The notes: generated by a model not told the origin, from the sequence alone. 64,000 nt of DNA from Thermoleophilaceae bacterium (GCA_030446485.1 JAUJNF010000001.1:194018-258017); one strand, 5' to 3'. Positions 19,264 to 52,345 are shown, numbered from the stretch's first letter. A program made the numbers and translations.

Positions 19264-20049
19264 AGCGTTACGGTCGCGGGCGGCTGGGTGAGAGACTCAC
19301 GCGAATGTCGACGGTCCAGTCGCTCCCCTTCTCGAGCTGTTAGGCGAATCGGGTGTCGAGCGCCGTACCCCGGCGTCGAACTGCTGACGAAGTTCGTCCC
19401 GCTCGAGGAGGAGCACTTCGGGCGATTGCCGACGGCCTGCCCTCCGCCCTGCTCGCCCGCGTGACCGAGCACCTCGCCGAGGCGGCGTTCTGCCGAGCGG
19501 TCGTTGAGGGCGACCTCCCCGGATACCTCCAATGACCGTACCGAGCGAACGGACTTCGATGTCGCTGTCTGCTTCCTGCGCCTCGCGATCGCCGCGATAG
19601 GTGCGGCCGCCAGGGTGCATCCGCACGTGCCCGATCCGCTTCCCCACTCCGAGGCCCTCCTATTCGAGCACCTCGACGCCCAATCAGCGGACTGGATTGA
19701 CGCGCGCGAGGACTAGGACGACCTCGGTGGGCCTCAGCTTCGGCGAGTCGCTGTTTCAGTCGACCACGAACGTGGCTGGCGAGGGCCCGGTGGTTCGAGG
19801 AGCGCGACGGGCACGAGGAGTAGCCGAGCGCCGCGGGCGAGACCCGCAGTCCCCGCGTGGCCCAATGCACCGCGCACGCTGATACGACGCGGACGTCAAG
19901 AGCCAGGCTGAGCGCAAGGCCGCAGCAGGCGGCGGCGACCGCTTGGTACCCGAACGCAGTTCTGAAGGCGTGAGGGACGAGGCTGCCGGGGTCACCAAAC
20001 GGCGGCGCGAGGCGCGTCTCGCCAATCAGGCTTGTAGGCTCACGCGCGG

Positions 20050-20358
20050 ATGGGAAGTTGCTTTGACCTCGACGACGTGTTCCCAATCATCGCGCGGCTG
20101 ATCGGGGAAACCGAGGTTGAGCCGGGCGCCTACGTGGAGCACGACGACCTTCTTCGGGCATTGCTCGGAGATACAGAAGCAGTGGCAGTGATCGAGGACG
20201 CCCACAGCCGCTGCCCTCAGCGAAGTCTGGAGGATCTGACGTCGAACATGATTGCTTGGTTTAGCCAGAAGATCACCGTCGGCGACTCACCGTGGAAGGA
20301 CGACTTCGAGCGGGCAAAAGTGCGTCGGAAGTGGGCGTACCGGCCCGCACAGCTCTAG
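20050..20358 (+). CDS. hypothetical protein
   Basis: 102-aa ORF with balanced composition in the low-GC block. No family recognised. Confidence 0.5.
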   Translation: MGSCFDLDDVFPIIARLIGETEVEPGAYVEHDDLLRALLGDTEAVAVIEDAHSRCPQRSLEDLTSNMIAWFSQKITVGDSPWKDDFERAKVRRKWAYRPAQL

Positions 20359-20598
20359 CCGGGTCGGCGAGTGGCGTCGTCACGCGCCGTTCCTCCGGCG
20401 GCGACCCCACAAGGTGACCACGGACGCGTGTCGCCCGTAACACGCGCGAAGGGTTCGAGAGGATCCTCCCGCGAACGCACGCCCGCTGCGTCGATACCGA
20501 CCGCGTCTCGGACCCGCTCGCGACAGCCTCGTGCCTCAGGTCTGTCGTCGTAGAATCGTTTCGCCTCGGCAGCGCATACGATCGAGACGTGCCCGCTT

Positions 20599-20781
20599 AT
20601 GGCTGACTACGTGTGCCCACGATGCGACCGGCTCTACAAGGTCAAGGGGCTTGATGCGAAAGAGCGCTGCCTTGGCTGCCATACGCTCCTGACCCCCGCC
20701 AAGCAGGCGCCGCCTCGCAAGCCCTGGGAGCGCGAGCGGTCAGCGGGCGCTCCTGGGCTCGGAAGACGCGGAAGACGGTAG
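20599..20781 (+). CDS. possible zinc-ribbon peptide
   Basis: MADYVCPRCDRLYKVKGLDAKERCLGCHTLL contains two CxxC pairs. The tail is low-complexity and overlaps an antisense ORF. Confidence 0.3.
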   Translation: MADYVCPRCDRLYKVKGLDAKERCLGCHTLLTPAKQAPPRKPWERERSAGAPGLGRRGRR

Positions 20782-20933
20782 ATCAGGTCAGAGCGGCGCT
20801 GATGTCCGACAACACGCGCGCGGCTAGGCCCCGCGACCGGACACGCCAAACAGACCTTGCTCGACTTGCCTGACGCCACTTCCCGGAGCGGTCGCGTCAC
20901 GTGGCAGGCACGATCCAGCCCTCTCGATCCCGG

Positions 20934-21224
20934 GAGGTTGTCGGCGAGCGGCTTCTCGAGCTTTGCGAGCGTCATGAACGCTCTGAAGGTCTCTGCATTG
21001 GCGAGTGCGCCCGCGCGAAGGAGGGCGACAGGGTCAATCTCCGTGTCGTCCGTTCCTGCCGCAAGTTCCAGATGACGTGCGCTGTAGAGCTGAGCGACGT
21101 TGCCGAAGCGCACCTTGTACCGCGGTTCGGCCGCGGAGAGGAGCACGTCGGTGATGACGCCGACGCCTACGTCGGAGCGCGCGCTCAGTACGACCTCGTC
21201 GCCCTTGACGAAGGGAAACGTCAC
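20934..21224 (-). pseudogene. N-terminal remnant of a RapA/SNF2-like helicase (tentative)
   Basis: MTFPFVKGDEVVLSARSDVGVGVITDVLLSAAEPRYKVRFGNVAQLYSARHLE...DPVALLRAGALANAETFRAFMTLAKLEKPLADN resembles the SH3/Tudor-like N-terminus and linker of SNF2 defence helicases. After that the frame degenerates and no helicase motifs follow. Confidence 0.4.
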
Positions 21225-21403
21225 GTCTTGGGGGTCACGATCACGCAGAGGTTCTTTTGCACGGGAAAGGCGCCCGTCGTGATCCTGTGCGAACTCGAGG
21301 ACATGCGCGGAACGCCGGTCGTGAGCCAGGTCATCTTGCGGCGGTTGCGGTGCAGAGGTGTGTTCGGCAAGTAGTGATCGTCGCTCTCAATGCGCCCCTA
21401 AGT

Positions 21404-21667
21404 TCAGCGTGTGTCGGGCTTGTGCGGGTAGACGACCAGGTCAGCCGGTTGGATCCGGTACGCAAAAGTAAGCACCGTTCCGGCGATGTTCGGAATGGCT
21501 CCCGGCTTGGCGCCGAGGTGAGCAGCCGCGACCTGCGCTTCATGGCCTCTTCGTCGTTGCCGATGACCGAGAGGTCGCCCATCTCCGCCCAGCCGATGGA
21601 GATTGAAGCCGTTGTCGACCAGGTGGAGCTGCGGCTGATCGTTGTGCACGCCCCACATTGTCGGCAT
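21404..21667 (-). pseudogene. remnant of a restriction-endonuclease-associated N-terminal domain, two frameshifts and truncated
   Basis: MWGVHNDQPQLHLVDNGF / ISIGWAEMGDLSVIGNDEEAMKR / VAAAHLGAKPGAIPNIAGTVLTFAYRIQPADLVVYPHKPD reads across two frames and stops after about 87 codons. Confidence 0.5.
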
Positions 21668-21770
21668 ACGCGGGAAGCTAGCTTCCCGCGGTCGTGATCG
21701 TCCTTCACGCCGGTTCAGGTTGCGGCAGGCGCCGCGCTGCTAGCTAGCGCTGGAGTCGCTCGTGCCCGCT

Positions 21771-22075
21771 CTAACCGCCGTGCCGACGACGGAACTCGGC
21801 CCCCATCGCTTCCTGGACGGCGACCCGGAACTGTTTATCGGCGAAGAATCGCTCGAACAGCTTGCGGCTCGTAGTGTGCATCCTCAACAATTCGTCTTTA
21901 AGCGCGTTCTCCAACGCGACCGGAAAGGTGCCGCTACTCCCAGATTTGGCCGCCTGGACGACCGTGTCATCCTTGAGCATCACGCCGACGAGTCGTTCCA
22001 CGATCGCAAGATCGCCAACGTCAAGCTTGCCGTCGAAACGGTTGGTGAGGTCCTCGGGTCGCATTGAGGGATGGT
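21771..22075 (-). pseudogene. C-terminal remnant of a second type I restriction R subunit
   Basis: PEDLTNRFDGKLDVGDLAIVERLVGVMLKDDTVVQAAK...SRKLFERFFADKQFRVAVQEAMGAEFRRRHGG aligns by eye with the intact HsdR tail ADLNTRFGAELGSGDRIILEQVLGEMAEDPELVQEAK...NKAFFERFFSDETFRADLIAGVGEEFHRRSGG. Confidence 0.7.
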
Positions 22076-22244
22076 TCGTGATCGTCTCCGGCTCGCCCGG
22101 TGTCCAGGGAGATTCTTGAGCGATCAGAACTCGCCCCCCGATCGACGCGTCTACTCCGCAGCAATTCCGCGCCGGTGCCACTCGTCGACGCACGACCATC
22201 CCTGATATTCGTCCTGCGCGGGGGCGAAGCATTGGAACCCGACC

Positions 22245-25200
22245 TCAGGCAGCGAGCTCGTCGCCGCCGCTGCGACGGTGGAACTCCTCGCCGACGCCGG
22301 CGATGAGGTCGGCGCGGAAGGTTTCGTCGGAGAAAAACCGCTCGAAGAACGCCTTGTTCGTGTTATCGGTCTTGAGCATCTCCTCCTCGAACGCGCCGCC
22401 GAAGACGAGGAGGAAGTTGTCCTTCGAGTTCACCTTCGCCTCCTGGACCAGCTCCGGGTCTTCGGCCATCTCGCCGAGCACCTGTTCGAGGATGATGCGG
22501 TCGCCGCTGCCGAGTTCCGCGCCGAAGCGCGTGTTGAGGTCGGCGATGATGACCGCGAGCCGGTCCTTGGTCGGCTCGACCGGCGGCAGGACCTCGCCGC
22601 TCTCGGGGTCAGAGACAGTGCCGCCCTGGCCTGGAGAGACGTCCTGCTCAGCTAGGGCCTCGATGCGCAGGTGCGTGAGCACGATGTCGCCGCCGAGGTC
22701 GAGCGAGCCGCCCTCCTGGGTGGGCAGCGCGTTCTGCAAGTGCCGCCCGTAGAGGAATGTCGCTTCGAGCTTCGGGTCGTTGAACGCGACCGCCTGTGCA
22801 AGGAAGCCGTAGATGTCGAGGAACTTCGAGAGGGCAGCGCGGAAGCCCTTGCGCTCATCGTCGTCGGGAAGCTGGGCGAAGCGCTCGACCGCGCCTTGCA
22901 GGTGCCCGATCAGCTGCGCGTGCGCGGTGGGCTCCAAAGGGTCTGAGCCGAGGAACACGCCCGCGAACGCCTGCTCGTCGGCAACGTCAATCACCGGATA
23001 GGCCGTCAGCGCGCCGTGCGCGACGTACATCTCCGCCGGCGACGTCGCGGACGTCATCGTCGCCTCGTAAAAGTCCTCGAACGCGTCGCGGATGTCGGCC
23101 CCGGCGTTCACGAAGTCCAGGACGAATGTGTCGTCCTTCTCCGGGTGGATGCGATTCAGCCGCGAGAGCGTCTGCACTGCGCGGATGCCGCGGAGCTTCT
23201 TGTCCACGTACATCGTGTGCAGCAGCGGCTGGTCGAAGCCGGTCTGGTACTTCTCGGCGACGACGAGCAGGCGATGCAGCTCGTGGCCGGCGTCCTTCTC
23301 GGGGTCGCCGGTCGGCACCCACGCGAACTTGCCCGGCAGCTCCGCTTCCCCGAACCCGTTGAGCTCGGCCTCCGTGTAGGAGGTGCCGGAGACCGAGACG
23401 GCGTCGGAGAATGCGACCAGCGGCTTGAAGCTCTCGTGGCCTTGGGCCTTCGCCGCCTTCGTGAGCGCGAAGTAGGTCAGGACTGCCAGCTCGCGAGAGG
23501 CGCAGGCCACCATCGCCTTGGCGTGGCCGCCGACCTTTGGCGCGACCGCGTGGTGGAAGTGCTCGACAATGACCCGCGCCTTCTCATCCAGCGTCTCGGG
23601 ATGGCGGCTGACGCACTTGACGATGGCCTGCGTCGCCTTGCTATTCTCGACCTCTTGGTCGCCCCCGCTCTCCGAGGCGACCTGCCAAAGGACGCTGTAG
23701 GGCGTGTAGCGCCGGAGCACGTCGAGGATGAAGCCCTCCTCGATGGCCTGGCGCATCGAGTACAGGTGAAACGGCGCGCGCTGGTCACCGCCGACGGCGG
23801 AGCCGAACAGCTCCAGCGTCCGCCGCGTCGGCGTTGCCGTGAACGCGAAGTAGGAGAGGTTCGGCTGCTTGCCCCGGGCTTTCACCGAAGCGGCGATGAG
23901 GTCTTGGACCTCGGCTTCGGACGGCTCGTCTTCGTCCTCGCTCTTGTCCTCCTCGTCCACGGCCGCAGCGGCGCCGGCACCGAGGGCGGTCCGCAGCGCC
24001 TTCGCCGCCTCGCCGCCCTGTGACGAGTGCGCCTCGTCAATGATGATCGCGTAGTTGCGGTCAGGCAGCTCGCCGAGCTTCTCGATTACGAAGGGGAACT
24101 TCTGGAGCGTCGAGATGATGATGCGGCTGGTCGCTGAGGAGAGCGCCGCCGCCAGCTCCGAGCTGCCGCCCTTGGTCTTCTGCACGAGGCCCGTCTTGTG
24201 CTCGAACTGGTACACGGTGTCGCCGAGCTGCTGGTCGAGCACGAGCCGGTCGGTGACGATGATGACCTTGTCGAAGACCGGCTCGTCGTCGGCGTGCAAG
24301 ACAGCCAGACGATGCGCGAGCCAGGCGATGGTGTTGCTCTTGCCGGAGCCGGCGGAGTGCTCAATGAGGTAGTTGTGCCCGGCGCCGTTGGTGCGAGCGT
24401 GCGCGAGCAGTCGGAGGACGGCGTCCCACTGGTGGAAGCGCGGGAAGATGACCGAGCGTTCGCCGTCGTCGTTCTTGGAGACGTGAACGAAGCGGCGCAG
24501 GATGTCTAGCCAGTTGTCGCGCTGCCAGACCTCCTCCCAGAGGTACGAGGTCGCGTACTTGCCGCCGGTGCCCGGCGGGTTGCCTTTGCCGTTGTTGTGG
24601 CCACGGTTGAACGGCAGGAAGACGGTGTCCTGGCTGGCGAGCTTGGTCGCCAGATAAACCTCGTCGGTGTCCACCGCGAAGTGCGCGATGGCGCGGCGGG
24701 CGAAGATGGGTTCCGACGCCTCGCGGTCGGAGCGGTACTGCTTCATAGCGTGCTTGACCGTCTGTTTGGTCAGCTTGTTCTTCAGCTCAGCGGTCGCTAC
24801 CGGAAGACCGTTCACGAACAGCACTAGGTCGAGCTCGTTCGTGTTCTTCGTGGAGTAGATGAGCTGTCGTACGACCGTGACCCTGTTCGCCGCGTAGAGC
24901 TCGGTCAGCTCCTTGGTCAGCCCGTGCTCGGGACGGAAGTATGCGAGCTCGAAGTCCACGCCCATGACCGAGACGCCGACGCGCAGACAGCGCAAGACGC
25001 CCTGGCTGTCGAGCATCTTTGCGACCGTCTGGTGGAAGGTGGCACGCGCCTTGCCCTCGTCGCCGCCGAAGCGCGTGGTCACGAGCGTCTGCCACTGCTT
25101 GGCCTGAGTCGCGGCGATGAACGCGTCCAGCTTGACGGGATCGAGCGCGAGCTTGGCGTCGTAGTTTGCCGGGTGGCCAGAGAGCCAGCGGGCCTGGCCG

Positions 25201-25268
25201 CGAGCGGGGTCGGTCAGATACGCCTCGATGGCGCGCTCGAAGTCCCCCTCCTTGTACGGGCCCGTCAT
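22245..25268 (-). CDS. hsdR: type I restriction endonuclease subunit R
   Basis: 1007 aa. N-terminal nuclease region, helicase motifs HSAGSGKSNT and IIIDEAHSSQ, and the characteristic C-terminal domain. Its ATG overlaps the hsdS stop by 4 nt. Confidence 0.95.
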   Translation of the reverse strand: MTGPYKEGDFERAIEAYLTDPARGQARWLSGHPANYDAKLALDPVKLDAFIAATQAKQWQTLVTTRFGGDEGKARATFHQTVAKMLDSQGVLRCLRVGVSVMGVDFELAYFRPEHGLTKELTELYAANRVTVVRQLIYSTKNTNELDLVLFVNGLPVATAELKNKLTKQTVKHAMKQYRSDREASEPIFARRAIAHFAVDTDEVYLATKLASQDTVFLPFNRGHNNGKGNPPGTGGKYATSYLWEEVWQRDNWLDILRRFVHVSKNDDGERSVIFPRFHQWDAVLRLLAHARTNGAGHNYLIEHSAGSGKSNTIAWLAHRLAVLHADDEPVFDKVIIVTDRLVLDQQLGDTVYQFEHKTGLVQKTKGGSSELAAALSSATSRIIISTLQKFPFVIEKLGELPDRNYAIIIDEAHSSQGGEAAKALRTALGAGAAAAVDEEDKSEDEDEPSEAEVQDLIAASVKARGKQPNLSYFAFTATPTRRTLELFGSAVGGDQRAPFHLYSMRQAIEEGFILDVLRRYTPYSVLWQVASESGGDQEVENSKATQAIVKCVSRHPETLDEKARVIVEHFHHAVAPKVGGHAKAMVACASRELAVLTYFALTKAAKAQGHESFKPLVAFSDAVSVSGTSYTEAELNGFGEAELPGKFAWVPTGDPEKDAGHELHRLLVVAEKYQTGFDQPLLHTMYVDKKLRGIRAVQTLSRLNRIHPEKDDTFVLDFVNAGADIRDAFEDFYEATMTSATSPAEMYVAHGALTAYPVIDVADEQAFAGVFLGSDPLEPTAHAQLIGHLQGAVERFAQLPDDDERKGFRAALSKFLDIYGFLAQAVAFNDPKLEATFLYGRHLQNALPTQEGGSLDLGGDIVLTHLRIEALAEQDVSPGQGGTVSDPESGEVLPPVEPTKDRLAVIIADLNTRFGAELGSGDRIILEQVLGEMAEDPELVQEAKVNSKDNFLLVFGGAFEEEMLKTDNTNKAFFERFFSDETFRADLIAGVGEEFHRRSGGDELAA

Positions 25269-26494
25269 GCGGCAGACCTCTGCGCGACGTGCTTCGCACC
25301 GAGGACCGTTTGGTCAAGGACAAGGCGTCGGCGACGTTCGTGTAGGGACCGGAGCTGATGGTCGAGTTGAGTGGTCAGCGTGCGGGTCGTATCGAGTGCG
25401 TCGTCCAACCGCCGAGCGAGGTCGTCCTGCGCGTCGCCGACCGGGACAGGAACTTGTACGCGCTTCAGGTTGCGAATGTTGATGCCGCGAACGGCGCTTC
25501 CCATCGCGCCCTCGTTCAGCTGCGTGAACACGAACTGCGAACGCAACGCGTGGTAAAGCCATCGTGTGCTGACTCCGGTAGCCGGCGCGATGCGGGCAAC
25601 ATCACGAGACACGTTGGCCCCGGCCAGTGACGGCGGCACCTCGGCCACCGCGCCGAAGCTTCCTCGAATGGACATCACCAGGTCCGCTGCTTCCAGCCGT
25701 GCGCGCGCGTAGGGCTGCTCAACCTCAGGCGTCGTACGTCGAAGGTTGTCGGGGTGAAGGCGCTCTGCTTCGACGTCCCCGGCATCAATGACGGAGATGC
25801 CTTCTGAGACGGACGGCCCGGGCATAAGAATGCCGTACATCGGCGGACGAGCCGGGTCCACGAGGTACATGAGGGGCGTGCGCCGCCCCGTGTCCTCCGC
25901 CCCTACGATGAGCGCGTTGGTCAGCGCCTGGTGCCGCTCAGCGACGAGTTGGCGCTGTCGGCCTTTCAGCTCCGAGAGTGCGTCGAGATGCCGCGTCTCG
26001 ACGTCCAGCACCTTTGCGATGGCCCGCTGCGCCGCCGTCGGTGGAACCTCGACCCACGTCGCCAGAAACCGACGAAGGTCGAGGTTCGCCAGCGTCGTTT
26101 CGTTCGCGAACCGTCTGCCGTCACCTCGCGCCCAGAGCGCTTGAAGCAGGTACCAGGCAAAGCGTGAGTCCACGCCCTCACGCGAACGTAGCCGAACCAA
26201 GAAGTTTGAACTGATGGCGCGGGTTGCTCCCTCAAACAGTGCTGGGAATCCGACGTTGCCTGACTTTTCGAGCAAGATATCTCCACGTTCGAGTAGCCGC
26301 CCCCGCTGGGCCGAGGCGGGCACGGCACGCGTCGTGTCGAGGTCTTCGCGCACCATGAACTTCGCTCGGTCGAAGTCGGCTACTCGCGCGCACGCGACGT
26401 CATCGTCTCCGCCAGTCGGGTCCTCTCCCCAGAGGCCAGCGACCGGTGGTTCGAACAGGTACTTCAGGCGAACGCGGCGAGTCTGGGTGGTCAC
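25265..26494 (-). CDS. hsdS: type I restriction-modification specificity subunit
   Basis: 409 aa with two variable target-recognition regions separated by conserved helical spacers. It sits between hsdM and hsdR with 4-nt overlaps on both sides. Confidence 0.9.
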   Translation of the reverse strand: MTTQTRRVRLKYLFEPPVAGLWGEDPTGGDDDVACARVADFDRAKFMVREDLDTTRAVPASAQRGRLLERGDILLEKSGNVGFPALFEGATRAISSNFLVRLRSREGVDSRFAWYLLQALWARGDGRRFANETTLANLDLRRFLATWVEVPPTAAQRAIAKVLDVETRHLDALSELKGRQRQLVAERHQALTNALIVGAEDTGRRTPLMYLVDPARPPMYGILMPGPSVSEGISVIDAGDVEAERLHPDNLRRTTPEVEQPYARARLEAADLVMSIRGSFGAVAEVPPSLAGANVSRDVARIAPATGVSTRWLYHALRSQFVFTQLNEGAMGSAVRGINIRNLKRVQVPVPVGDAQDDLARRLDDALDTTRTLTTQLDHQLRSLHERRRRLVLDQTVLGAKHVAQRSAA

Positions 26495-28458
26495 GAGCTC
26501 TCGGCCACCCGTTCCAGGAGCCGCTGCACCTCGTGTTCGGTTTGCCGAAGGTCTTCGTCAATCTCGTCCAAAGGACGTAGGACCTCATCGCGATGAAACA
26601 CTCGCGTGAACGGAAGCTCGCATCCCTCGCGTCCTTGTGGCTCCGAGACCCACGCGTCGGGGGCGAACTGCAGAACTTCGCGTTCCATGTACTCCTCGAC
26701 GCTTTCACCGAGCGGGACTAGCTCGTACTCACGGAGGTCTGGGTCCGGTTCTATGTCGCCCTTCTTGTTGCGAACCTCCGGCGCAGCGGCATCGCGGGTA
26801 CTGAGCGCTGCCCACAACGCCTTCTTTGCGGGCGCGGCAAGCTTGCTCGGGATGACTTGCGCAAGCTTCTGTCCGGCCTCGACACGGGCTGTCGTGTTGA
26901 GACCATTCAATGCTCTCAGCCCTGCGGCGAGCTGGTCCTGGAGCTCCATGCCGAACTTCTGGAAGGCGGCAAGTGCTTGCAGCCGCTCGACGGCCTCCTC
27001 GCCAGCGCGGTAGCGCAATCGCAGGGGGCGCTCGACCGCGACCCGGCGGTAACCGAACTCGTGGTTCTCGAACACCTTGGAGCGCTCGTCCTCCGCGTCG
27101 AACCCTCGCCAGAGGCCGAGCACCTGCTCGATGTGGTCGAGCGAGAGACGGCGGCGCTTGTTGCCGAGGCTCTTGGGCATCTGCTCCCACAGCTCCCGTG
27201 CGTCAATCAGCTGAACCTTGCCCTTGCGGCGCGTCTCCTTGCGGTCGGTCAACACCCAGAGGTAGGTCGAGATGCCGGTGTTGTAGAAGAGCTGCTCAGG
27301 CAGCGCGACGATGGCCTCAAGCCAGTCGTTCTCCAATTGCAACAGCCAGCGCCGGATTTCGCTTTCTCCCGAGCCGGCATCACCCGAGAAGAGAGGTGAC
27401 GCGTTGAAGATGATGGCGATGCGGCTGCCGGCGTCCTGCTCCGGCGGCTTCATCTTCGCGAGCATGTTCTGAAGGAAGAGCAAAGCGCCGTCGCTTTTTC
27501 GCGGGGTCCCGGCACCGAACCGGCCGTCGTAGCCCTTCTGTTCGTGTTCGGCGATGACCGCATCGTGGTCGGCTGCCCAGTCCACGCCGAACGGCGGATT
27601 GGCGAGCATGAAGTCGAAGCGCTGGCCCTCAGCACCGTCCGCCGACAGCGTGCTGCCAGGAGCGATGCGACCGGGGTCCTGCCCCTTGACGAGCAGCTCG
27701 GCGCGGCAGATGGCCCAAGACTCCGGGTTGAGCTCCTGACCGAAAGAAACCAGTCGGGCCTTCGGGTTGCGGTCGCGGACCAACTCCTCGACTACAGAGA
27801 GCATCCCGCCGGTGCCGCATGCCGGGTCGTACACGGTGCGGACGATGCCCGGCGTCGTAAGCAGCTCCTCGTCACCGGCGAGGACCAGTTCGGCGCAGAG
27901 CCGGACGACCTCACGCGGCGTGAAGTGCTCGCCGGCCGTCTCATTCGAGACCTCCGAGAAGCGCCGAATCAGCTCCTCGAAGATATCGCCCATGACCTCG
28001 TTCGGGACGGTGTCCGGGTGGAGGTCGAGGTCGGGGTCGAGGAACTTGCCGAGCACCGAGTAGAGCCGGTCGGCCTTCTCCAAGCGCGTGATGGTCGCGT
28101 CGAACTCGAACGCCTCGAAGATTTCGCGCACGACTGGGTCGAAGCCGGCGAGGTACTCGCGCAGGTGCGTCGCCGCGTGGTCGGGGTCGGCCATGACCTT
28201 TGCGAGCGACAGCTTCGACGCGTTGTAGAAGCGCTGGTCCGCCGCGCGCTTGAGGATGGGGTCGAGGTTCAGCCCACGGCCCTCGTACTTCGCCGCCTCA
28301 GCGAGCACGTGCTCCTTGGTCGGCTCCAGCACCTGGTCGAGGCGACGCAGCAGCGTCAGCGGCAGGATGATGCTGCCGTATTCGTGCTGCTTGAATGCGC
28401 CGCGCAGTCGCTCGGCGATTGACCAAATGAAGTTGACGTGGCCGTTGGTGGAAGGCAT
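26491..28458 (-). CDS. hsdM: type I restriction-modification N6-adenine DNA methyltransferase subunit
   Basis: Inner ATG MPSTNGHVNFIWSIAERLRG (HsdM N-domain). DPACGTGGML (AdoMet site) and MLANPPFG (NPPF catalytic motif) are present. Confidence 0.95.
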   Translation of the reverse strand: MPSTNGHVNFIWSIAERLRGAFKQHEYGSIILPLTLLRRLDQVLEPTKEHVLAEAAKYEGRGLNLDPILKRAADQRFYNASKLSLAKVMADPDHAATHLREYLAGFDPVVREIFEAFEFDATITRLEKADRLYSVLGKFLDPDLDLHPDTVPNEVMGDIFEELIRRFSEVSNETAGEHFTPREVVRLCAELVLAGDEELLTTPGIVRTVYDPACGTGGMLSVVEELVRDRNPKARLVSFGQELNPESWAICRAELLVKGQDPGRIAPGSTLSADGAEGQRFDFMLANPPFGVDWAADHDAVIAEHEQKGYDGRFGAGTPRKSDGALLFLQNMLAKMKPPEQDAGSRIAIIFNASPLFSGDAGSGESEIRRWLLQLENDWLEAIVALPEQLFYNTGISTYLWVLTDRKETRRKGKVQLIDARELWEQMPKSLGNKRRRLSLDHIEQVLGLWRGFDAEDERSKVFENHEFGYRRVAVERPLRLRYRAGEEAVERLQALAAFQKFGMELQDQLAAGLRALNGLNTTARVEAGQKLAQVIPSKLAAPAKKALWAALSTRDAAAPEVRNKKGDIEPDPDLREYELVPLGESVEEYMEREVLQFAPDAWVSEPQGREGCELPFTRVFHRDEVLRPLDEIDEDLRQTEHEVQRLLERVAESS

Positions 28459-28952
28459 AGGACGGGCGGCATGGCCGCGACCTTGTACGCGGGTACGCGC
28501 CAGCACTCGTATTTCTAGCCGCTCGCAGCTAGTCGCGCGAGCCACTCGCTACAGGCCAGGGTCGTCTATCCGCTTCGCTCGCCGCTTGCGCTAGCGCGAC
28601 ACCGCATCCTGAGCGCCTGGCAGGCTGAGAACGCGCGTGACGAAGGCGCGCGCCTGCTCCGTCCAGCCCGGCGACTCGCGCCCGGCGCTCAACCGCAGGT
28701 TCAAGCGCCGGCCGCCTCTTCCTACGAGAGACTCACCGCTGCGTCCACGAAGTGGCCCTGGTTGCGCAGCTGGTCTTCGAGGCCCTCCATCGCTACGGGC
28801 TGCGGACTAGTTCTAGCCGCCCAACTCCGGCGCTGGCGGTCCCCGCAGACCAGCCCTTCCCGCGCCTCTATCCCGCGACCGGGGTGTCGCGGGGCGTCAA
28901 GACCGCCCTTCGTGATTCTCCCGAGGCGACGACCGACCCCCTCCGCAGTCGG

Positions 28953-31385
28953 CTATTGCTCGATTAGGGCTTGAAGATCGTCGCTGCTCAGTTCGCGAGC
29001 CGGGTTGACCTGGCCGTTCACGACCGCGCCCTCGGCTTGCAGCATCTCCACCGGATCACGCGTGTCTTCGGGATCGGTCCACCTGAAGTTCGGGGCGACG
29101 GTCCCGTTGCTCTTGAGGAGGCGGTGAGCGTTCGTGCACTGCCGGCAGGTGGTCACGTGCGCGCCGAGCGGCTGAGCGGCCGTCCCCACCGCGTCCGCCA
29201 GACTGCCATAGGTGGTCCAATGACCCACAGGCAAGGCCGCAAGGATTGTGTGGAGGGCTGACCAATCGAAGCTTGGCGCCATTTTCGCAGGGTCCTCGCC
29301 GGTGTATATGGCTCGGACGTCGAGAAGCCTGCGGCCATCAGGCAGGCTCCAGAACCGCCAGCCGTTGGTGACCGAACCCCCCTTGACGTATCGGCCGGCG
29401 CCCGACGGCGAATCGAAGGTCTTCCCGTCGATGTCAAGGAGCCCGTCAGACCGCACGAGCGCGCTACGAGTCTCCCACGCGCCGGCGCGAGGGGTCAACA
29501 CCGTCCCGGGGGGAAGAAGCCTCGCATCGACGAGGTGTTTGACCTGGATCCAACCCGCTGACTTCTCGTGCGGGTCGACGACGATGCCTTCGTGGCCATT
29601 CGGTACCGGCCACTTCTCCAGGAGCACGTCAATCAGGGCTTCGGTCCGCGCGTCGATACCGGCCTCATCCCAGGTCCCGTCGAGCGTCGACAGAAGTCGG
29701 CTGTTGAGAAGCAGCGTGTCGTGAGCTTGCAGTGCCGTGCGCTTCGATTCCCACGGACCGTTAGAGACCTTGGAGTTCAGCGATGCGGTGAGCAGGGTCA
29801 GGTTTCCAAACCTATGGACGTGCTCGGCTCGGAGCTCCTCGGCGACTGGGTCGCTGACGGGCCAATGATCCGGCCATTTCTGGGGAAGAATGTGCTCGAT
29901 CGGGTATCCACGACGTGGAACCTGCGGCTGATTCGTCGAACGTCGATATTCGTCCTCGATTGCCTCGAAGAGCATCCGTAGACGAGACTTTTTGAAACGG
30001 CGGAAGACCTGCTCAGTGCGAAGCGCTCCCCGAATCTCATCGTCCCCAGGCCAGTACGTACTGGTCACGTTGAGCCGTGACAGGTATCCCTCGATACTCT
30101 CAGCCAGGCCAGCCGGCGGGGTGGGTTCATGCGCGCGGATGATGTCCGCGACGATGCGTCCCATGTCCGCGACAGCCAGGCGCAGGATCTGTCGTCGGAC
30201 CAGCCAGCTCTCGACTGCGGACGTGACGCGGTCGATTACGTCGGCCGGCACGTCGCGGCCGGGCTCGTGCAACCAGATCAGCAACGGCTTCAGCAGCTCG
30301 GTGCCCGACGCCTTCATCCGGTAGACGGCAAGCTCAACCCGGGTGAGCTGTCGGTCGCCCTCGTCCGCCACCGTCGTCCAACGCTCGTATGTCTCCGCCT
30401 GCTTCCGAATCACCGAAAGCAGATCCGCGACCTTCGTTCCTGTCTCGAGCTCGATCTGTTCGACGTACTGCTTGAAGCGCGTGAACGTGGCGCGGAGGCT
30501 GACTTCCTCGCCAAGACGCGTCATCAACCATTGGTTGAAAAAGAGCGAGCTTCGCGGCATGGCGTAGCGACCGACGCTGACCTCCTTCTCCCAGAACTCG
30601 GTCTCAAAGGGCCAATCGTCGAGATGGGCACGCGTGTCCGCCCCCTCGGCGGCCAAGCGCTGGAAAACGAAGTTCCTGATGAGGTCCGCCGCGGTGAGAG
30701 GTGTCCCTCTCGCGTTCAGCGTCTCGAAGATCTCCTGCGAGTTCTCGTTGATCGTTAGGTTGATGGCGACCAGCTGCAATCCGCGGGTCAGTACCCCCGT
30801 AAGCGCCTGCGCACGCTCCGCGACTCCGTCGGCCGCCGGATCCAACCACTCCGTTACGACTTCGGTGAAGTACTCGTGCGCGCGAACCACTCGACCTCCC
30901 GAGTGAAGGAGGGTCTCATGGGCGATGGGAGCCTCGGCGTCCATCACCTCGTCAAAGGCGTGCCGGTCCCGATTGCTATGGCGGAGCTTGAGTCGTGTCT
31001 CAGCGCCCGGGACGTAGATGTTCTCGTTGTGGGTGAGGCGATCGAGTTGTCCCGCAAGTGCGTCTTGACTGATCGTCTCAAGTGCCGCAGCAGCTGCATC
31101 CATGAGCAGCTGAAGTGTGGTCAGCCGCTGCTGCCCGTCGATGATGCTGCTCGCTTGGAGGCCGCCGAGTATCGGCTCCTGCGCTTGTACGACGATCGCG
31201 CCGAGGAAGTGCTTGGCTTCGGCAGCCGGTTGCGCGATCCGGATAGCCGCCAGGCGTCGGACGTCCTGCCAGAGCGGCGCCCACTGTTCCTCCTTTTCCC
31301 AAACATACGGGCGCTGGAACGGGGGCACCACGAGGTGCTGCGGCTGCATGAAGACGTCCTGCGGAGTCCGGACGTGCGTTTCCAT
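28953..31385 (-). CDS. GmrSD-family (DUF262 + DUF1524) type IV restriction-like enzyme with C-terminal RAMA and alkyltransferase-like (MGMT DNA-binding) domains
   Basis: VVPPFQRPYVWEKEEQW and IIDGQQRLTT (DUF262). YPIEHILPQKW...HRFGNLTLLTASLNSKVSN (DUF1524 His-Me finger). LLPPGTVL...DGKTFDSPSGAGRYVKGGSVTNGWRFW (RAMA-like, about 29304-29549). GHWTTYGSLADAVGTAAQPLGAHV...NAHRLL (ATL-like without Cys, about 29061-29273). Confidence 0.85.
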   Translation of the reverse strand: METHVRTPQDVFMQPQHLVVPPFQRPYVWEKEEQWAPLWQDVRRLAAIRIAQPAAEAKHFLGAIVVQAQEPILGGLQASSIIDGQQRLTTLQLLMDAAAAALETISQDALAGQLDRLTHNENIYVPGAETRLKLRHSNRDRHAFDEVMDAEAPIAHETLLHSGGRVVRAHEYFTEVVTEWLDPAADGVAERAQALTGVLTRGLQLVAINLTINENSQEIFETLNARGTPLTAADLIRNFVFQRLAAEGADTRAHLDDWPFETEFWEKEVSVGRYAMPRSSLFFNQWLMTRLGEEVSLRATFTRFKQYVEQIELETGTKVADLLSVIRKQAETYERWTTVADEGDRQLTRVELAVYRMKASGTELLKPLLIWLHEPGRDVPADVIDRVTSAVESWLVRRQILRLAVADMGRIVADIIRAHEPTPPAGLAESIEGYLSRLNVTSTYWPGDDEIRGALRTEQVFRRFKKSRLRMLFEAIEDEYRRSTNQPQVPRRGYPIEHILPQKWPDHWPVSDPVAEELRAEHVHRFGNLTLLTASLNSKVSNGPWESKRTALQAHDTLLLNSRLLSTLDGTWDEAGIDARTEALIDVLLEKWPVPNGHEGIVVDPHEKSAGWIQVKHLVDARLLPPGTVLTPRAGAWETRSALVRSDGLLDIDGKTFDSPSGAGRYVKGGSVTNGWRFWSLPDGRRLLDVRAIYTGEDPAKMAPSFDWSALHTILAALPVGHWTTYGSLADAVGTAAQPLGAHVTTCRQCTNAHRLLKSNGTVAPNFRWTDPEDTRDPVEMLQAEGAVVNGQVNPARELSSDDLQALIEQ

Positions 31386-31790: not shown

Positions 31791-33431
31791 GTGACGCCGA
31801 CTGAGCTAGCGCGAATCCATGCTGAGTTGGAAGGAATAGGGCATGTCCTGCGGGACCGGCGGCTCGCGGTCCCTTCGTATCAGCGCGCCTACTCCTGGCG
31901 GGAACCGCAGGTCGCTGACTTCTGGTGGGACCTACGCGCGGCGTTTGGATCTAAAGCGTCGCAGTACTTCCTTGGATCGATCGTCATCACTGAGGACACG
32001 GAGAGTGGCGGCAGCACCGTCATCGACGGCCAGCAGCGCCTCGCAACCACGGTGATGCTGCTCGCGGCATTCCGCAATCAGTTCGTGACGCGCGGAGATT
32101 CCGACAGGGCCCAGGTGCTCGAGCGCGACTACATCGCGTCAAGGACCTTAAGGACAACGGATCTCGAACCGCGCCTTACGCTGAACGTCACAGATCGAAC
32201 ACAGTTTCGAGAGCTCGTGATCGCACCGCCCGACGCTACTTCGAGCGGTCAAGACGGCGAGCGGAACGCTCTAATGGATCAGGCGTTTGGCTTCCTCGCT
32301 GCGCGTGTCGATGAGGAAGCCCACGCCGCCGGGCGACATTGGGCCGAGCGGCTCGTCGAGTGGGTCGACTTCCTCGAAGAGCGCGCCAGGGTGATCACGG
32401 TAGATGTGTCGTCGGAAGCGGACGCATTCCTCATTTTCGAGACTCTCAACGCTCGGGGCCGAGAGCTTACGGTCGCCGATGTGCTTAAGAACTACCTGTT
32501 CGGACTCGCGCGGGACGAGCTTGAGGCGGTACAGGAGCACTGGCTGTCGGCAATCAGGGCCCTGGAAACCACGGCCGACGAGGAAATTTTCACCACATTC
32601 GTTCGGCACCATTGGAGCTCCTCCAGGGGCGCGACTCGCGAGCGAGAGCTCTATGCGCGCATGAAGTCTGGCCTGACGACTTCTTCCGCTGCCTTGACGT
32701 TCGCCGACGACCTAGACGCTGCCGCCCCTTCCTATGCGGCGTTGCTTAGCTCGGATCACGAGCATTGGACGGCTTCTCCGGAATTGCAGCCGGCCGCGCA
32801 GACACTTCTGCGCTTCGGCCTTGAGCAGAACCGACCGTTGCTCCTCGCGGCAATGCGGCGGTTCGAGTCAGCCGAATTCGCGCAGCTCCTGCGTGCCGTC
32901 ATCTCGTGGTCGGTACGGGGCCTCATCGTGGGCGGTATCGGTGGAGGCAGTACGGAGCGTGCCTATGCCGACGCGGCGGTCCTTGTTAGCGAGCGGACGA
33001 TCTCCACGACGAAAGATGTCTTCGTCGAGCTCGCGTCAGTTATCCCCACAGACGAGTCGTTCATACAGGCGTTCGCACAGCGGCGCGTCAACCGGACCAG
33101 GCTGGCCAAGTACTACCTCATCGCTCTAGCGCAATCCGAGGATGGAAATGCGAGCCCTCTCTTTGTGTCGGACGAGATCGATCAGGACTATCGGCTTGAA
33201 GCGGTGATCCCCCGCAATCCGAACCCTGAGGAGTGGCAAGGATTTCCTGCCGATGAGCTGCGCCAATGGGCTCTGCGCCTCGGGAACCAGTACGTGAGCG
33301 ATTCGCAGGGAGCACGCGCGCCCGTCGGCGATGACCTCGCCTCTCCGGACGTATTCGGACCGGACGACATCGTAGATCGTCAGCGACGCATGGCCGAGCA
33401 AGCGGTGGCGATATGGCCACGACCCTTCTGA
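31791..33431 (+). CDS. DUF262 protein with degenerate DUF1524-like C-terminus
   Basis: GTG start with AAGGA 6 nt upstream. VPSYQRAYSW and IDGQQRLATT are present. The C-terminal YRLEAVIPRNP...LRLGNQYVSDSQ occupies the place of IEHILPQ...GNLTLL...N. Confidence 0.8.
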   Translation: MTPTELARIHAELEGIGHVLRDRRLAVPSYQRAYSWREPQVADFWWDLRAAFGSKASQYFLGSIVITEDTESGGSTVIDGQQRLATTVMLLAAFRNQFVTRGDSDRAQVLERDYIASRTLRTTDLEPRLTLNVTDRTQFRELVIAPPDATSSGQDGERNALMDQAFGFLAARVDEEAHAAGRHWAERLVEWVDFLEERARVITVDVSSEADAFLIFETLNARGRELTVADVLKNYLFGLARDELEAVQEHWLSAIRALETTADEEIFTTFVRHHWSSSRGATRERELYARMKSGLTTSSAALTFADDLDAAAPSYAALLSSDHEHWTASPELQPAAQTLLRFGLEQNRPLLLAAMRRFESAEFAQLLRAVISWSVRGLIVGGIGGGSTERAYADAAVLVSERTISTTKDVFVELASVIPTDESFIQAFAQRRVNRTRLAKYYLIALAQSEDGNASPLFVSDEIDQDYRLEAVIPRNPNPEEWQGFPADELRQWALRLGNQYVSDSQGARAPVGDDLASPDVFGPDDIVDRQRRMAEQAVAIWPRPF

Positions 33432-33454
33432 GCGCCTGGGTCTGAGGTTGCCCG

Positions 33455-34264
33455 ATGCCGGGGCTTCTGACTGCCGAACCCCTTGAGCGTGTGTACTTGG
33501 CTTGGCGCAGGACGGTGCTCACTGACCCAGAAATGCGAGCGATCGACCAGGCGAGCATGCGACAGCTCGCAAACGCCCTCAATGAAGCGCTGACGGGCGA
33601 CGCGCAGGAGGCGCTCGAAGAAGCGTGCGAGCTCCTAGCCGCCCAAGAGCTCAATCCAACGACCTCAATACGAGTAGTCACGACGCTGGTCGAGACGTTT
33701 GTCGATGAGATCGGGGCCCGATCGGGAGCGGAGATCCGAAGCCTCGTCGCGACGCTGGGCCAGGCCTGCGCATCGCTCTCGACCGGCTTGGTTACCCGCG
33801 CCGGAGCTGGCGCTAAGCGCGATCACATGACCGCGCTCCCTAACCGTCAGGCCTTTGACGAGGCCCTTGCGGCAGGCACTCGAGCCGCGCTCGACCAAGA
33901 GAACTCGCTCGTTCTGGCTCATTTCGACCTCGACAACTTCAAGCAGATCAACGACACGGAGGGGCATCCGGCAGGGGACGACATCCTCCGCGGGTTCGCG
34001 GCCGCCCTGAGGGACGAGTTGCCGGAGGACGCGACTGCATACCGGACGGGGGGCGACGAGTTTTGCGCTCTGTTTCCGGACAACGTGAGCGGCTCCGCAC
34101 AAGAGCTTGTCGGCGCGCTGCGGGATCGCGGCGTGGCCGAATTCAGCTGCGGGATCGCCCGAATCTCGCCAGATGTCGCTACACCGGAAGAGCTGTATCA
34201 AGCCGCCGACCAAGAGCTCTACCGGAACAAGGAAGCGCGAAAGTCGCAGCCGGACGCCTCGTAG
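33455..34264 (+). CDS. GGDEF-domain diguanylate cyclase-like protein with unassigned ~110-aa N-terminal domain
   Basis: TALPNRQAF, FDLDNFKQINDTEGHPAGD and YRTGGDEFCALF motifs. It starts 24 bp after the DUF262 gene and has its own GAGG. Confidence 0.85.
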   Translation: MPGLLTAEPLERVYLAWRRTVLTDPEMRAIDQASMRQLANALNEALTGDAQEALEEACELLAAQELNPTTSIRVVTTLVETFVDEIGARSGAEIRSLVATLGQACASLSTGLVTRAGAGAKRDHMTALPNRQAFDEALAAGTRAALDQENSLVLAHFDLDNFKQINDTEGHPAGDDILRGFAAALRDELPEDATAYRTGGDEFCALFPDNVSGSAQELVGALRDRGVAEFSCGIARISPDVATPEELYQAADQELYRNKEARKSQPDAS

Positions 34265-34490: not shown

Positions 34491-34820
34491 TCAGCGCGGG
34501 ACGACAACAACCGTCCCCGCGTAGTGCTCACCCGTGGGGGGTTCGAAGACCGCGCGCTTTGCCCGGTTCCCAAGCGTGCGATCACCCACGACAGCATCAT
34601 GGAGCCTCGTGATGTCGGCTAAGCGTGGCGCGCTTTGAGGTTTGACGACGATCGAAACTGCCCCGGCCTTGTAATCGTCGCCTTCTTTGGTCTGCGCATC
34701 AACAAGGAACGCGGGGTGGGCGGTCAGGTCAGCGTCCCCTAACCAAGCGAATTCGGGCTCAGCCGCCACCTTGGTTTCGAACCACGCTCTGACGATCGAC
34801 TCGATGGCTTCTCGATCCAT
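34491..34820 (-). CDS. hypothetical protein
   Basis: Inner ATG MDREAIESIVRAWFETKV with GGGGAGGGG upstream. 109 aa. No family recognised. Confidence 0.5.
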   Translation of the reverse strand: MDREAIESIVRAWFETKVAAEPEFAWLGDADLTAHPAFLVDAQTKEGDDYKAGAVSIVVKPQSAPRLADITRLHDAVVGDRTLGNRAKRAVFEPPTGEHYAGTVVVVPR

Positions 34821-35002
34821 CGGTGGGACGTTACCCCTCCCCGGAGGCGTCTGCCAACTCGGTTGGGAGCGTCTCGTCGTGGTACAGGTGCCGCGCGAGC
34901 CCGAGGAGCTGCTTGGGGGACGAATCCTCTCCGAAGAGCACTGGCGCGACCGCGACGGACCCGAGCCGACCCGCGGCGACGTCAGGCTCGCCACTGGCTC
35001 GC

Positions 35003-52149: not shown

Positions 52150-52345
52150 GTCTCCTTCGGTAGGCGCCTACGGGGTTAGCTGTCGGGCTCGCGCAGAAGG
52201 ACTGCGCTACGCCGCATGTGCGGCGACTCGCCCCGGGGCCGGCCAACAGCCGACCCAAGCGGGTCCCCCGATCCCCGCCGCCTGGGCGGTGAGGACTCGG
52301 CTGACATATGTCGAAGGGCGGCATGGTAGCGATTTCGCCCCCCCA
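52150..52345 (-). promoter_or_regulatory. ydaO/yuaA-type (cyclic-di-AMP) riboswitch in the 5' leader of the Rpf-like gene
   Basis: Minus-strand leader contains AAAUCGCU, GGGGGACCC, GGGGCGAGUC and CCCGACAGCUAACCCCGUAGGCG, and ends in CCGAAGGAGA (SD). These match the conserved blocks of the ydaO motif as I recall them. Confidence 0.75.

Follow-up and report, generated by a model that had tools for sequence, protein, structure and literature searches.

The closest described relatives of the system considered here are proteins in which a DUF262 domain is combined with a nuclease domain. HEC-06, represented by a PADLOC profile, is a single-protein GmrSD-like anti-phage system in which the substitutions E471A/H472A abolish defence, as do Q79A/R80A in the Q and R of DGQQR (Payne et al., bioRxiv 10.1101/2024.01.29.577857). 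DndI is the phosphorothioate-sensing DUF262-HNH nickase of the IscS-DndBCDE-DndI system; it is mainly an ATPase, its residue R87 is essential, and ATP hydrolysis couples DNA sensing to conformational change (PDB 9JFL; PMC11662687). GmrSD, BrxU and SspE, which are type IV restriction or defence nucleases, combine DUF262 with a DUF1524-derived part and occur in defence islands, and the title of PMC13251355 calls SspE a GTPase. GmrSD-like proteins have been seen as self-contained combinations of a sensor and a nuclease. Here we describe a branch that drops the nuclease chemistry and keeps the sensor, starting from a stretch of 64,000 nucleotides (nt) of a Thermoleophilaceae bacterium (GCA_030446485.1 JAUJNF010000001.1:194018-258017), hereafter the window. 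The element under study is a pair of genes at positions 31,791-34,264, encoding a DUF262 protein of 546 amino acids and a GGDEF protein of 269 amino acids. The initial annotation, made from the sequence of the window, proposed that a nuclease-dead DUF262 nucleoside triphosphatase (NTPase) is coupled to a cyclase. This proposal is strongly supported by comparative genomics, the pairing being found in about 14 divergent lineages, in the nuclease-dead branch only and with changing flanks. We consider, with a probability of about 0.55, that the two genes form a self-contained and horizontally mobile conflict module, probably directed against phages or plasmids, that derives from a single-protein GmrSD-like nuclease of the HEC-06/DndI branch.

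The two hallmarks first noticed in the 546-amino-acid protein, VPSYQRAYSW (residues 27-36) and IDGQQRLATT (residues 78-87), were found again and are included in an NTPase domain recognized by the Pfam profile GmrSD_N (Table 1). Relatives were collected from 5.8 billion proteins (1150 with an E-value of at most 1e-10), and the best 116 of them were aligned. The residues D79, G80 and R83 are invariant in this alignment, and Q81, Q82 and Y30 are conserved in at least 90% of the sequences. The HEC-06 profile of PADLOC matches the protein at 4.5e-148 over the profile positions 4-497 of 558, the C-terminus of the profile being unmatched. The AlphaFold2 (AF2) model, with a mean predicted local distance difference test score (pLDDT) of 91.9 and of about 95 through most of the C-terminal domain, displays a DUF262 NTPase domain, a helical middle domain and a C-terminal domain derived from DUF1524, which is the three-part fold of the solved members of the family (DUF262, helical linker, C-terminal domain). 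With this model as query, Foldseek detected DndI (9JFL, 8e-16), SspE (8e-14) and BrxU (1e-5). The profile of the DUF262 family matches DndI over its full length (8e-40) and aligns Tyr25 of DndI, the phosphorothioate-sensing residue, with Y30 of the motif P-x-Y-Q-R. On the basis of the alignments and of the model, the sensor/NTPase half of the protein is predicted to be intact, and the nuclease half appears to be kept in structure and chemically dead.

The loss concerns the His-Me finger, whose catalytic form is [DE]-H-[IV]-x-P followed by G-N and by a distal Asn. The 546-amino-acid protein lacks this form and reads YRLEAVIPRNP at 33189-33221 and LRLGNQYVSDSQ at 33273-33308. In the alignment with the relatives, Ala470 is aligned with the catalytic His of N-L-E-H-V-L-P-K; a stretch of about 20 residues, which includes LL.KGPNGRIGNKP in the intact relatives, is deleted, and the second Asn/metal half of the finger is gone. 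The search with the Pfam hidden Markov models recovered GmrSD_N, and GmrSD_C was absent from this protein even when E-values of up to 1 were admitted. The initial annotation had reported the replacement of the His by Ala and unrecognizable Asn positions, and had allowed for a misread intact nuclease motif; both the alignment and Pfam confirm the loss. Because E471A/H472A abolishes the defence by HEC-06, the motif lost here is the one that matters.

Among the 116 aligned relatives, 44 are in the intact state. These proteins (about 560 amino acids, 43-46% identity to the query) display the motif [VL]-N-L-E-H-[IV]-L-P-[KR] ... R-[LI]-G-N-x-x-L-L-x-K-G-P-N-G-R-I-G-N-K-P, which is the canonical DUF1524 His-Me finger. 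The E-H pair is missing from 68 relatives, including all the closest ones, and most of them also lack about 20 residues that include the second, Asn-rich half of the finger; all 68 are full-length, with 524-601 amino acids. The four remaining sequences keep the E-H pair and miss the scored pattern of the second half: P0094 and P0114 belong to the intact clade, and P0007 and P0010 to the dead clade. The latter two retain N-L-E-H-V-L-P-R amid dead sequences and have no second finger half; they may be intermediates or reversions. In a neighbour-joining tree, the intact proteins form one clade, and the dead ones are divided into a crown clade and a grade beside the intact clade. In the grade members P0066 and P0113, GmrSD_C is still scored by Pfam and the His is gone. 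The ancestral architecture is that of a DUF262 NTPase, a helical linker and a DUF1524 His-Me nuclease; the catalytic His disappeared from one branch, as did the second finger half, and the NTPase motif and the fold were kept there under strong purifying selection.

The association with a GGDEF gene follows the state of the nuclease motif. Loci were counted when they were non-redundant within the subfamily, had a complete C-terminus and offered at least 700 nt of downstream DNA. A GGDEF gene on the same strand directly downstream was observed in 11 of the 12 loci without the E-H pair and in none of the 12 loci with it (Fisher p = 1e-5, a value to be taken as a guide only, these loci not being phylogenetically independent). 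Recurrence across genomes had been called for at the outset, and these counts establish that the pairing is not peculiar to the Thermoleophilaceae genome. The three shorter contigs and the window bring the total to about 14 GGDEF-paired lineages (the window and our loci L081, L082/83, L084/85/93, L086, L094, L087, L096, L091, L090, L104, L125, L132, L133 and L134), of which the metagenome contigs L094, L096, L104 and L125 were added by a survey of all the fetched loci. These lineages include all those of the nuclease-dead branch with readable DNA downstream. By protein, the GGDEF gene lies immediately downstream on the same strand for the window protein, P0012, P0006, P0023 and P0031, and is also found downstream of the more distant dead forms P0053 and P0057 and of the grade members P0066 and P0113. 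No GGDEF gene is present at the loci of the intact relatives P0091 and P0110. The reciprocal look-up, starting from the partner homologue P0359, placed this homologue directly downstream of the C-terminus of a dead DUF262 protein. In the relatives, the downstream frame opens 4-43 nt past the DUF262 stop codon or overlaps it; the genes as called are 4-511 nt apart, the widest spacing being that of L090, where just a fragment of 118 amino acids was called. Relatives with as little as about 45% identity still show the pairing, in flanks that are unrelated. The dead branch, with its conserved GGDEF partner, does not operate as a single gene, whereas the intact relatives are devoid of such a partner.

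One locus departs from this arrangement. L120 (metagenome contig Ga0299914_10015209, 2335-5360) encodes a member of the same DUF262 subfamily with S-H-V-L-P ... R-I-G-N-L-C-L-R-Q, without the Glu of the E-H pair and without the second finger half. Its partner is a PIN_8 protein of 355 amino acids (PF18476, 3e-48), the stop and start codons of the two genes overlapping, and no GGDEF gene is present at this locus. The PIN_8 gene looks like a second kind of partner acting in trans, and this variant supports the notion that the partners are exchangeable outputs.

Relatives were also looked for in other collections. The scan of a genome collection with the full-length alignment was swamped by the generic patterns FLIFETLN and IDGQQR; most of what it gave was distantly related (L001 and L002, with 38-40% identity, being the closest), and the nuclease-dead branch was not represented. 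A metagenome scan with a single protein found nothing, and 40 usable loci came from a scan in which the dead clade was represented by an alignment of its C-termini. The relatives that could be named are actinobacterial.

Both genes are under strong purifying selection. The ratio of nonsynonymous to synonymous substitution rates (dN/dS) was obtained from the close pair L086 and L094 (dS about 0.9-1.0). It is 0.067 for the DUF262 gene (0.043 for the N-domain, 0.085 for the middle domain and 0.069 for the dead C-domain) and 0.089 for the GGDEF gene. From the value obtained for the dead C-domain it follows that this domain continues to serve a purpose, such as binding DNA or docking the partner.

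The partner was assigned to the GGDEF family by PF00990 (107.9 bits for a cut-off of 23.8) and by the NCBIfam model TIGR00254 (96.5 bits for a cut-off of 37.4), and Foldseek with its model recovered diguanylate cyclases. The signature YRTGGDEF, which covers residues 196-203, is intact, and the position of the RxxD inhibitory site (I-site) reads PEDA, in agreement with what was first read from the sequence. Alignment with WspR and TpbB reveals the complete active-site set D158, D160, K163, N166, D175, R197 and G199-G-D-E-F203. D158, D160, K163, N166 and G200-D-E do not vary among the partners, and D175 and R197 hardly do. Judged from the alignment with WspR and TpbB, the conserved residues are those that contact the metal, the phosphate and the guanine in working diguanylate cyclases, in agreement with what is known of PleD. 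The allosteric RxxD I-site is present in none of about 20 partners and in 156 of 227 generic GGDEF proteins (69%); this site is common in GGDEF diguanylate cyclases and does not define them. The signature itself drifts to GGDEY, AGDEY, MGDEY or HGDEF: about half of the partners, and 0 of the 227 generic proteins, end the signature with Tyr, and the first Gly is replaced by A, M or H in about one third of the roughly 20 partners. The sequence data thus point to a bona fide PF00990 member belonging to an unusual subfamily.

The first 119 residues of the partner have no Pfam match, as the initial annotation had indicated in describing an unassigned helical domain. The AF2 model (mean pLDDT of 87) displays a bundle of five helices at residues 7-23, 32-45, 51-62, 68-89 and 94-119, the last one continuing into the GGDEF domain. 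An exhaustive search of 1.84 billion representative proteins with this domain gave 11 matches, namely the query, one saposin false positive and nine relatives. Six of these relatives have a GGDEF domain and three are products of 113-151 amino acids without a Pfam match; no other domain is fused. Word-indexed searches with the partner, as a single sequence or as a profile, gave mostly generic GGDEF proteins and, besides the query, only the family members P0122 and P0241. The homologue P0359 (L132, 365-1660) contains the N-domain of the family followed by two GGDEF domains in tandem, with the signatures GGDEF and AGDEF.

In the window, whose G+C content is about 72%, the pair is located in an island of lower G+C (63-65%) at roughly 20-35 kb. 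The G+C content at third codon positions (GC3) is 0.72-0.74 for the pair and 0.90-0.97 for the core genes outside the island. With a GC3 below that of the flanking core genes, the two genes are part of DNA that was acquired horizontally. When 14 loci were compared all against all, DUF262 and GGDEF were the sole families common to all, C5 methylases and integrases being each found in three. The flanks comprise type I restriction-modification (R-M) and GmrSD genes in the window, an integrase and a cluster of ThiF, phosphoribosyltransferase (PRTase) and YukD genes in L086 and, each at one locus, PIN toxins; RadC, a TIR-TPR protein, a relaxase and Dcm with HATPase and Z1; an integrase, HicB and transposases; Prim-Pol and D5; a SacI-type enzyme with Dcm and Vsr; and Shedu SduA_C, Mrr and AAA_16. 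A nucleotide-synthesizing enzyme is thus found in defence or mobile loci, among R-M, Shedu, Mrr and toxin-antitoxin genes and integrases. These differing flanks, together with the two common families, are the behaviour of a self-contained mobile module of two genes.

Two further observations concern these flanks. A C5 DNA methylase gene is situated just downstream of P0359, and C5 methylases are close to the pair in L084 and L133 as well. In L086 (10724-14281, JGI Ga0604947_0000031), the genes on the opposite strand beside the pair encode Pribosyltran, ThiF, an unknown protein, a Y4jH-like protein and a YukD-like protein; this cluster resembles the ubiquitin-like conjugation conflict systems.

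A mechanism can be proposed by analogy with DndI, SspE and BrxU. The DUF262 protein would sense DNA, possibly its modification state, through the P-x-Y-Q-R pocket and hydrolysis of nucleoside triphosphates (NTP). Cutting having been lost, the conformational change of this protein would be relayed to the GGDEF partner. The simplest relay would be the joining or alignment of two partner molecules through their N-terminal helices, because a GGDEF domain must dimerise to synthesize a cyclic dinucleotide. The product would be a guanine-containing cyclic dinucleotide, most likely cyclic di-GMP (c-di-GMP), made without a feedback brake. The pair being devoid of an accompanying effector gene, its output could pass through host c-di-GMP receptors, through a drain of GTP, or back onto the DUF262 protein. 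A more specific form of the proposal, which we advance tentatively and hold to be possible rather than probable, is that a sensor similar to those of type IV restriction was rewired from DNA cutting to a second messenger: foreign or modified DNA would activate a feedback-free GGDEF cyclase, and c-di-GMP, or a new product of the GGDEY type, would act as an immune alarm through the host c-di-GMP network with no dedicated effector. We infer from the sequences that the pair is a signalling defence system.

Several points weigh against a defence module. The association may stem from a single ancestral event, as seen in the neighbour-joining tree, so that the counts are not independent. The family is rare: the scan of viral contigs gave no relatives, and the plasmid collection gave distant ones that are at most 34% identical. 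The locus L090 sits amid housekeeping genes. A linked effector or receptor gene with a signal-binding domain was not found in the all-against-all comparison of the 14 loci and, to our knowledge, every established nucleotide-signalling defence system has such a dedicated effector or receptor. Moreover, c-di-GMP is a housekeeping messenger and would be noisy as an immune signal. The replacements of the Gly and Phe of the signature indicate that the activity or the product may differ from that of a standard diguanylate cyclase. Finally, the defence function, the physical complex and the nucleotide product are all predictions drawn from sequence comparison.

Alternatively, the pair could be cargo of mobile elements that manipulates the host, a DNA or NTP cue raising host c-di-GMP and altering biofilm, development or transfer of the element. 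Integrases or a relaxase adjoin the pair at several loci, one locus lies among housekeeping genes, no effector gene is linked, and the conserved guanine-recognizing Asn and Asp suggest ordinary c-di-GMP. The diguanylate cyclases of conjugative elements (DgcK and DgcL of SXT/R391) are known to alter host c-di-GMP. We nevertheless find this unlikely, since the sensor descends from a family of defence nucleases, defence genes (R-M, Shedu, Mrr, toxin-antitoxin, Z1) make up many of the flanks, the sister variant has a partner of the effector type, a PIN nuclease, and the family-wide absence of the I-site suits an all-or-none output better than tuned signalling. The GGDEF protein may also not generate a signal at all, and be an effector draining GTP, a GTP-binding subunit that regulates the DUF262 NTPase, or an enzyme with a non-canonical product. 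The changes of the signature (A, M or H for the first Gly, and Tyr for Phe in about half of the partners against none of the 227 generic proteins) are in line with this, as are the absence of the I-site, which would permit unrestrained turnover, the lack of a linked receptor or effector gene and the fact that the DUF262 relatives are NTPases. The conservation of the metal Asp/Glu, the Lys, the Asn/Asp base-recognition pair and the Arg as in working cyclases makes this quite improbable, and diguanylate cyclases are generally slow, so that depletion of GTP would not be obvious.

The initial annotation had also considered the pair as a regulator of the divergent GmrSD gene at 28953-31385. The sole support for this role is the divergent arrangement in the window, with a shared intergenic region of 405 nt. 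A GmrSD-type neighbour is found at 0 of the 13 other loci, no third family is conserved, and the two DUF262 proteins are distant paralogues with 30% identity restricted to the N-domain; a regulatory role is consequently very unlikely. Still less credible is the DUF262 gene as a decaying defence remnant that lies by chance beside an ordinary GGDEF signalling gene. The nuclease motif is indeed lost and partly deleted, but the dN/dS is 0.07, dead domain included, all 68 dead-motif members are full-length, the AF2 model is confident and the pairing holds to about 45% identity in unrelated flanks. Decay with chance adjacency is refuted by this selection and by the synteny in about 14 lineages. A mobile conflict module derived from a nuclease is the reading that we prefer.

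The coordinates and motifs given initially were all confirmed on re-reading of the sequence and are collected in Table 1.

Table 1. Position of the gene pair, its domains and motifs, and other features of the window.
Feature	Position	Strand	Remarks
DUF262 gene (GmrSD/HEC-06/DndI-like, C-domain predicted to be dead)	31791-33431	+	546 amino acids; Pfam, PADLOC, AF2, Foldseek
DUF262 (ParB/Srx-like) NTPase domain	31845-32501	+	Residues 19-237; Pfam GmrSD_N, 2.6e-31
D79-G-Q-Q-R83 motif	32025-32039	+	In the NTPase domain, which also holds P-x-Y30-Q-R
Degenerate His-Me finger	33189-33308	+	Y-R-L-E-A-V-I-P-R ... L-R-L-G-N-Q-Y-V-S-D-S-Q
GAGG ribosome-binding site of the GGDEF gene	33445-33448	+	Within the intergenic gap of 23 nt; operon-like coupling
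GGDEF gene	33455-34264	+	269 amino acids; begins 23 nt past the DUF262 stop codon
N-terminal domain of the GGDEF partner	33455-33811	+	Residues 1-119; AF2 five-helix bundle, family-specific
GGDEF domain	33812-34246	+	Residues 120-264; PF00990, 5.7e-31; signature at 34040-34063
GmrSD gene, intact nuclease motif	28953-31385	-	810 amino acids; divergent neighbour, context only
Type I R-M operon	22245-28545	-	HsdR 22245-25268, HsdS 25265-26494, HsdM 26491-28545; context only
Open reading frame of the island	20050-20358	+	No Pfam match
Open reading frame of the island	20634-21224	-	No Pfam match
Open reading frame of the island	21771-22232	-	No Pfam match
Open reading frame of the island	34491-34994	-	No Pfam match
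c-di-AMP (ydaO-type) riboswitch	52150-52312	-	RF00379, 64.6 bits for a gathering score of 38

The 269-amino-acid gene has its own GAGG as first reported, the gap between the two genes being measured here as 23 nt. The position of the pair, divergent from the GmrSD-type gene and adjoining the type I R-M operon, was likewise confirmed. Scans for promoters and terminators, a search for repeats in the divergent intergenic region and Rfam gave nothing informative near the pair. The DUF1524 His-Me finger that had been recognized in the neighbouring GmrSD is present, both GmrSD_N and GmrSD_C being intact with YPIEHILPQKW and FGNLTLLTASLNSK. The C-terminus of this neighbour is fused to a RAMA domain (PF18755, residues 609-694, 1e-13) and to a weakly matched MGMT-type DNA_binding_1 domain (residues 713-786), an unusually extended architecture for a type IV enzyme. 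The small open reading frames of the island (19300-22240 and 34491-34994) flank the R-M, GmrSD and GGDEF genes; they may be further island cargo or spurious. The riboswitch, specific for cyclic di-AMP (c-di-AMP), is the sole Rfam match of the window and is unrelated to the pair.

The initial annotation knew of no described defence pairing of DUF262 and GGDEF. Literature text searches (DUF262, GmrSD or ParB with GGDEF; cyclases in defence islands or phage defence) likewise gave no paper describing such a pairing, and PADLOC contains no model matching the GGDEF partner. The protein of the dead branch comes with an output encoded by a second gene, as a rule a GGDEF cyclase and in one case a PIN nuclease. 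The scaffold of DUF262 and linker may be a portable DNA/NTP sensor driving exchangeable effectors, and an enzyme of the canonical GGDEF type, hallmark of lifestyle signalling, may have been put to use in genetic conflict. If the pair does raise an immune alarm, a canonical GGDEF enzyme would for the first time be seen to serve anti-phage immunity, and innate immunity would be tied directly to lifestyle signalling. Confirmation would add to the nucleotide-synthase families of immunity their last major member in canonical form, and would provide a simple two-gene system for how DNA sensing by a ParB/Srx-type NTPase becomes an output.

The best family match of the 546-amino-acid protein is HEC-06; the two have a DUF262 domain with DGQQR and a helical middle domain in common and agree in overall length. 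The intact relatives at 43-46% identity share with HEC-06 the essential motif E-H-[IV]-x-P. Unlike HEC-06, which is a single gene and requires E471 and H472, the 546-amino-acid protein has Ala for His, a deleted second finger half and a GGDEF partner. DndI is the closest solved structure by profile and by fold, with Tyr25 aligned with Y30 and a conserved DGQQR, and it serves as mechanistic template, NTP hydrolysis coupling DNA sensing by the N-domain to the behaviour of the C-domain. However, DndI has an active HNH motif (N541 being essential) and acts together with dnd modification genes, whereas the pair has no dnd or ssp genes nearby, a dead nuclease and a GGDEF partner. SspE and BrxU give significant fold matches, but GmrSD, BrxU and SspE are active nucleases without a cyclase partner, and the identity is only 12-17%. 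Failing both the catalytic feature and the autonomy of a single gene, the 546-amino-acid protein is not classed as a GmrSD-type nuclease.

On the side of the partner, the GGDEF domain superposes on those of diguanylate cyclases that depend on a protein activator or a helical stalk, such as SiaD-SiaC (7E6G), WspR and DgcB, and the long helix entering the GGDEF domain is as in the stalk-mediated dimers. The separate activator SiaC binds the stalk of SiaD, a precedent for a control by the DUF262 protein. The partner differs from SiaD, WspR and DgcB by its private five-helix N-domain, the absence of the I-site, the drifting signature and the link to a derivative of a defence nuclease instead of a signalling cascade. 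The proposed logic, a sensor and a nucleotide synthase in a mobile defence locus, is that of the cyclic oligonucleotide-based antiphage signalling system (CBASS), of the Cas10 palm of type III CRISPR, of Pycsar, of Thoeris and of the mCpol of Panoptes; the fold of the Cas10 palm and of mCpol is of the GGDEF type (bioRxiv 10.64898/2026.08.10.743927). Membership in a CBASS-like signalling system was rejected, no effector being linked. CBASS, Pycsar, Thoeris, type III CRISPR and Panoptes possess a linked effector activated by the signal, whereas no effector is conserved with the pair. Unlike the synthases of those systems, the enzyme encoded here is a canonical PF00990 GGDEF protein with the residues that specify guanine.

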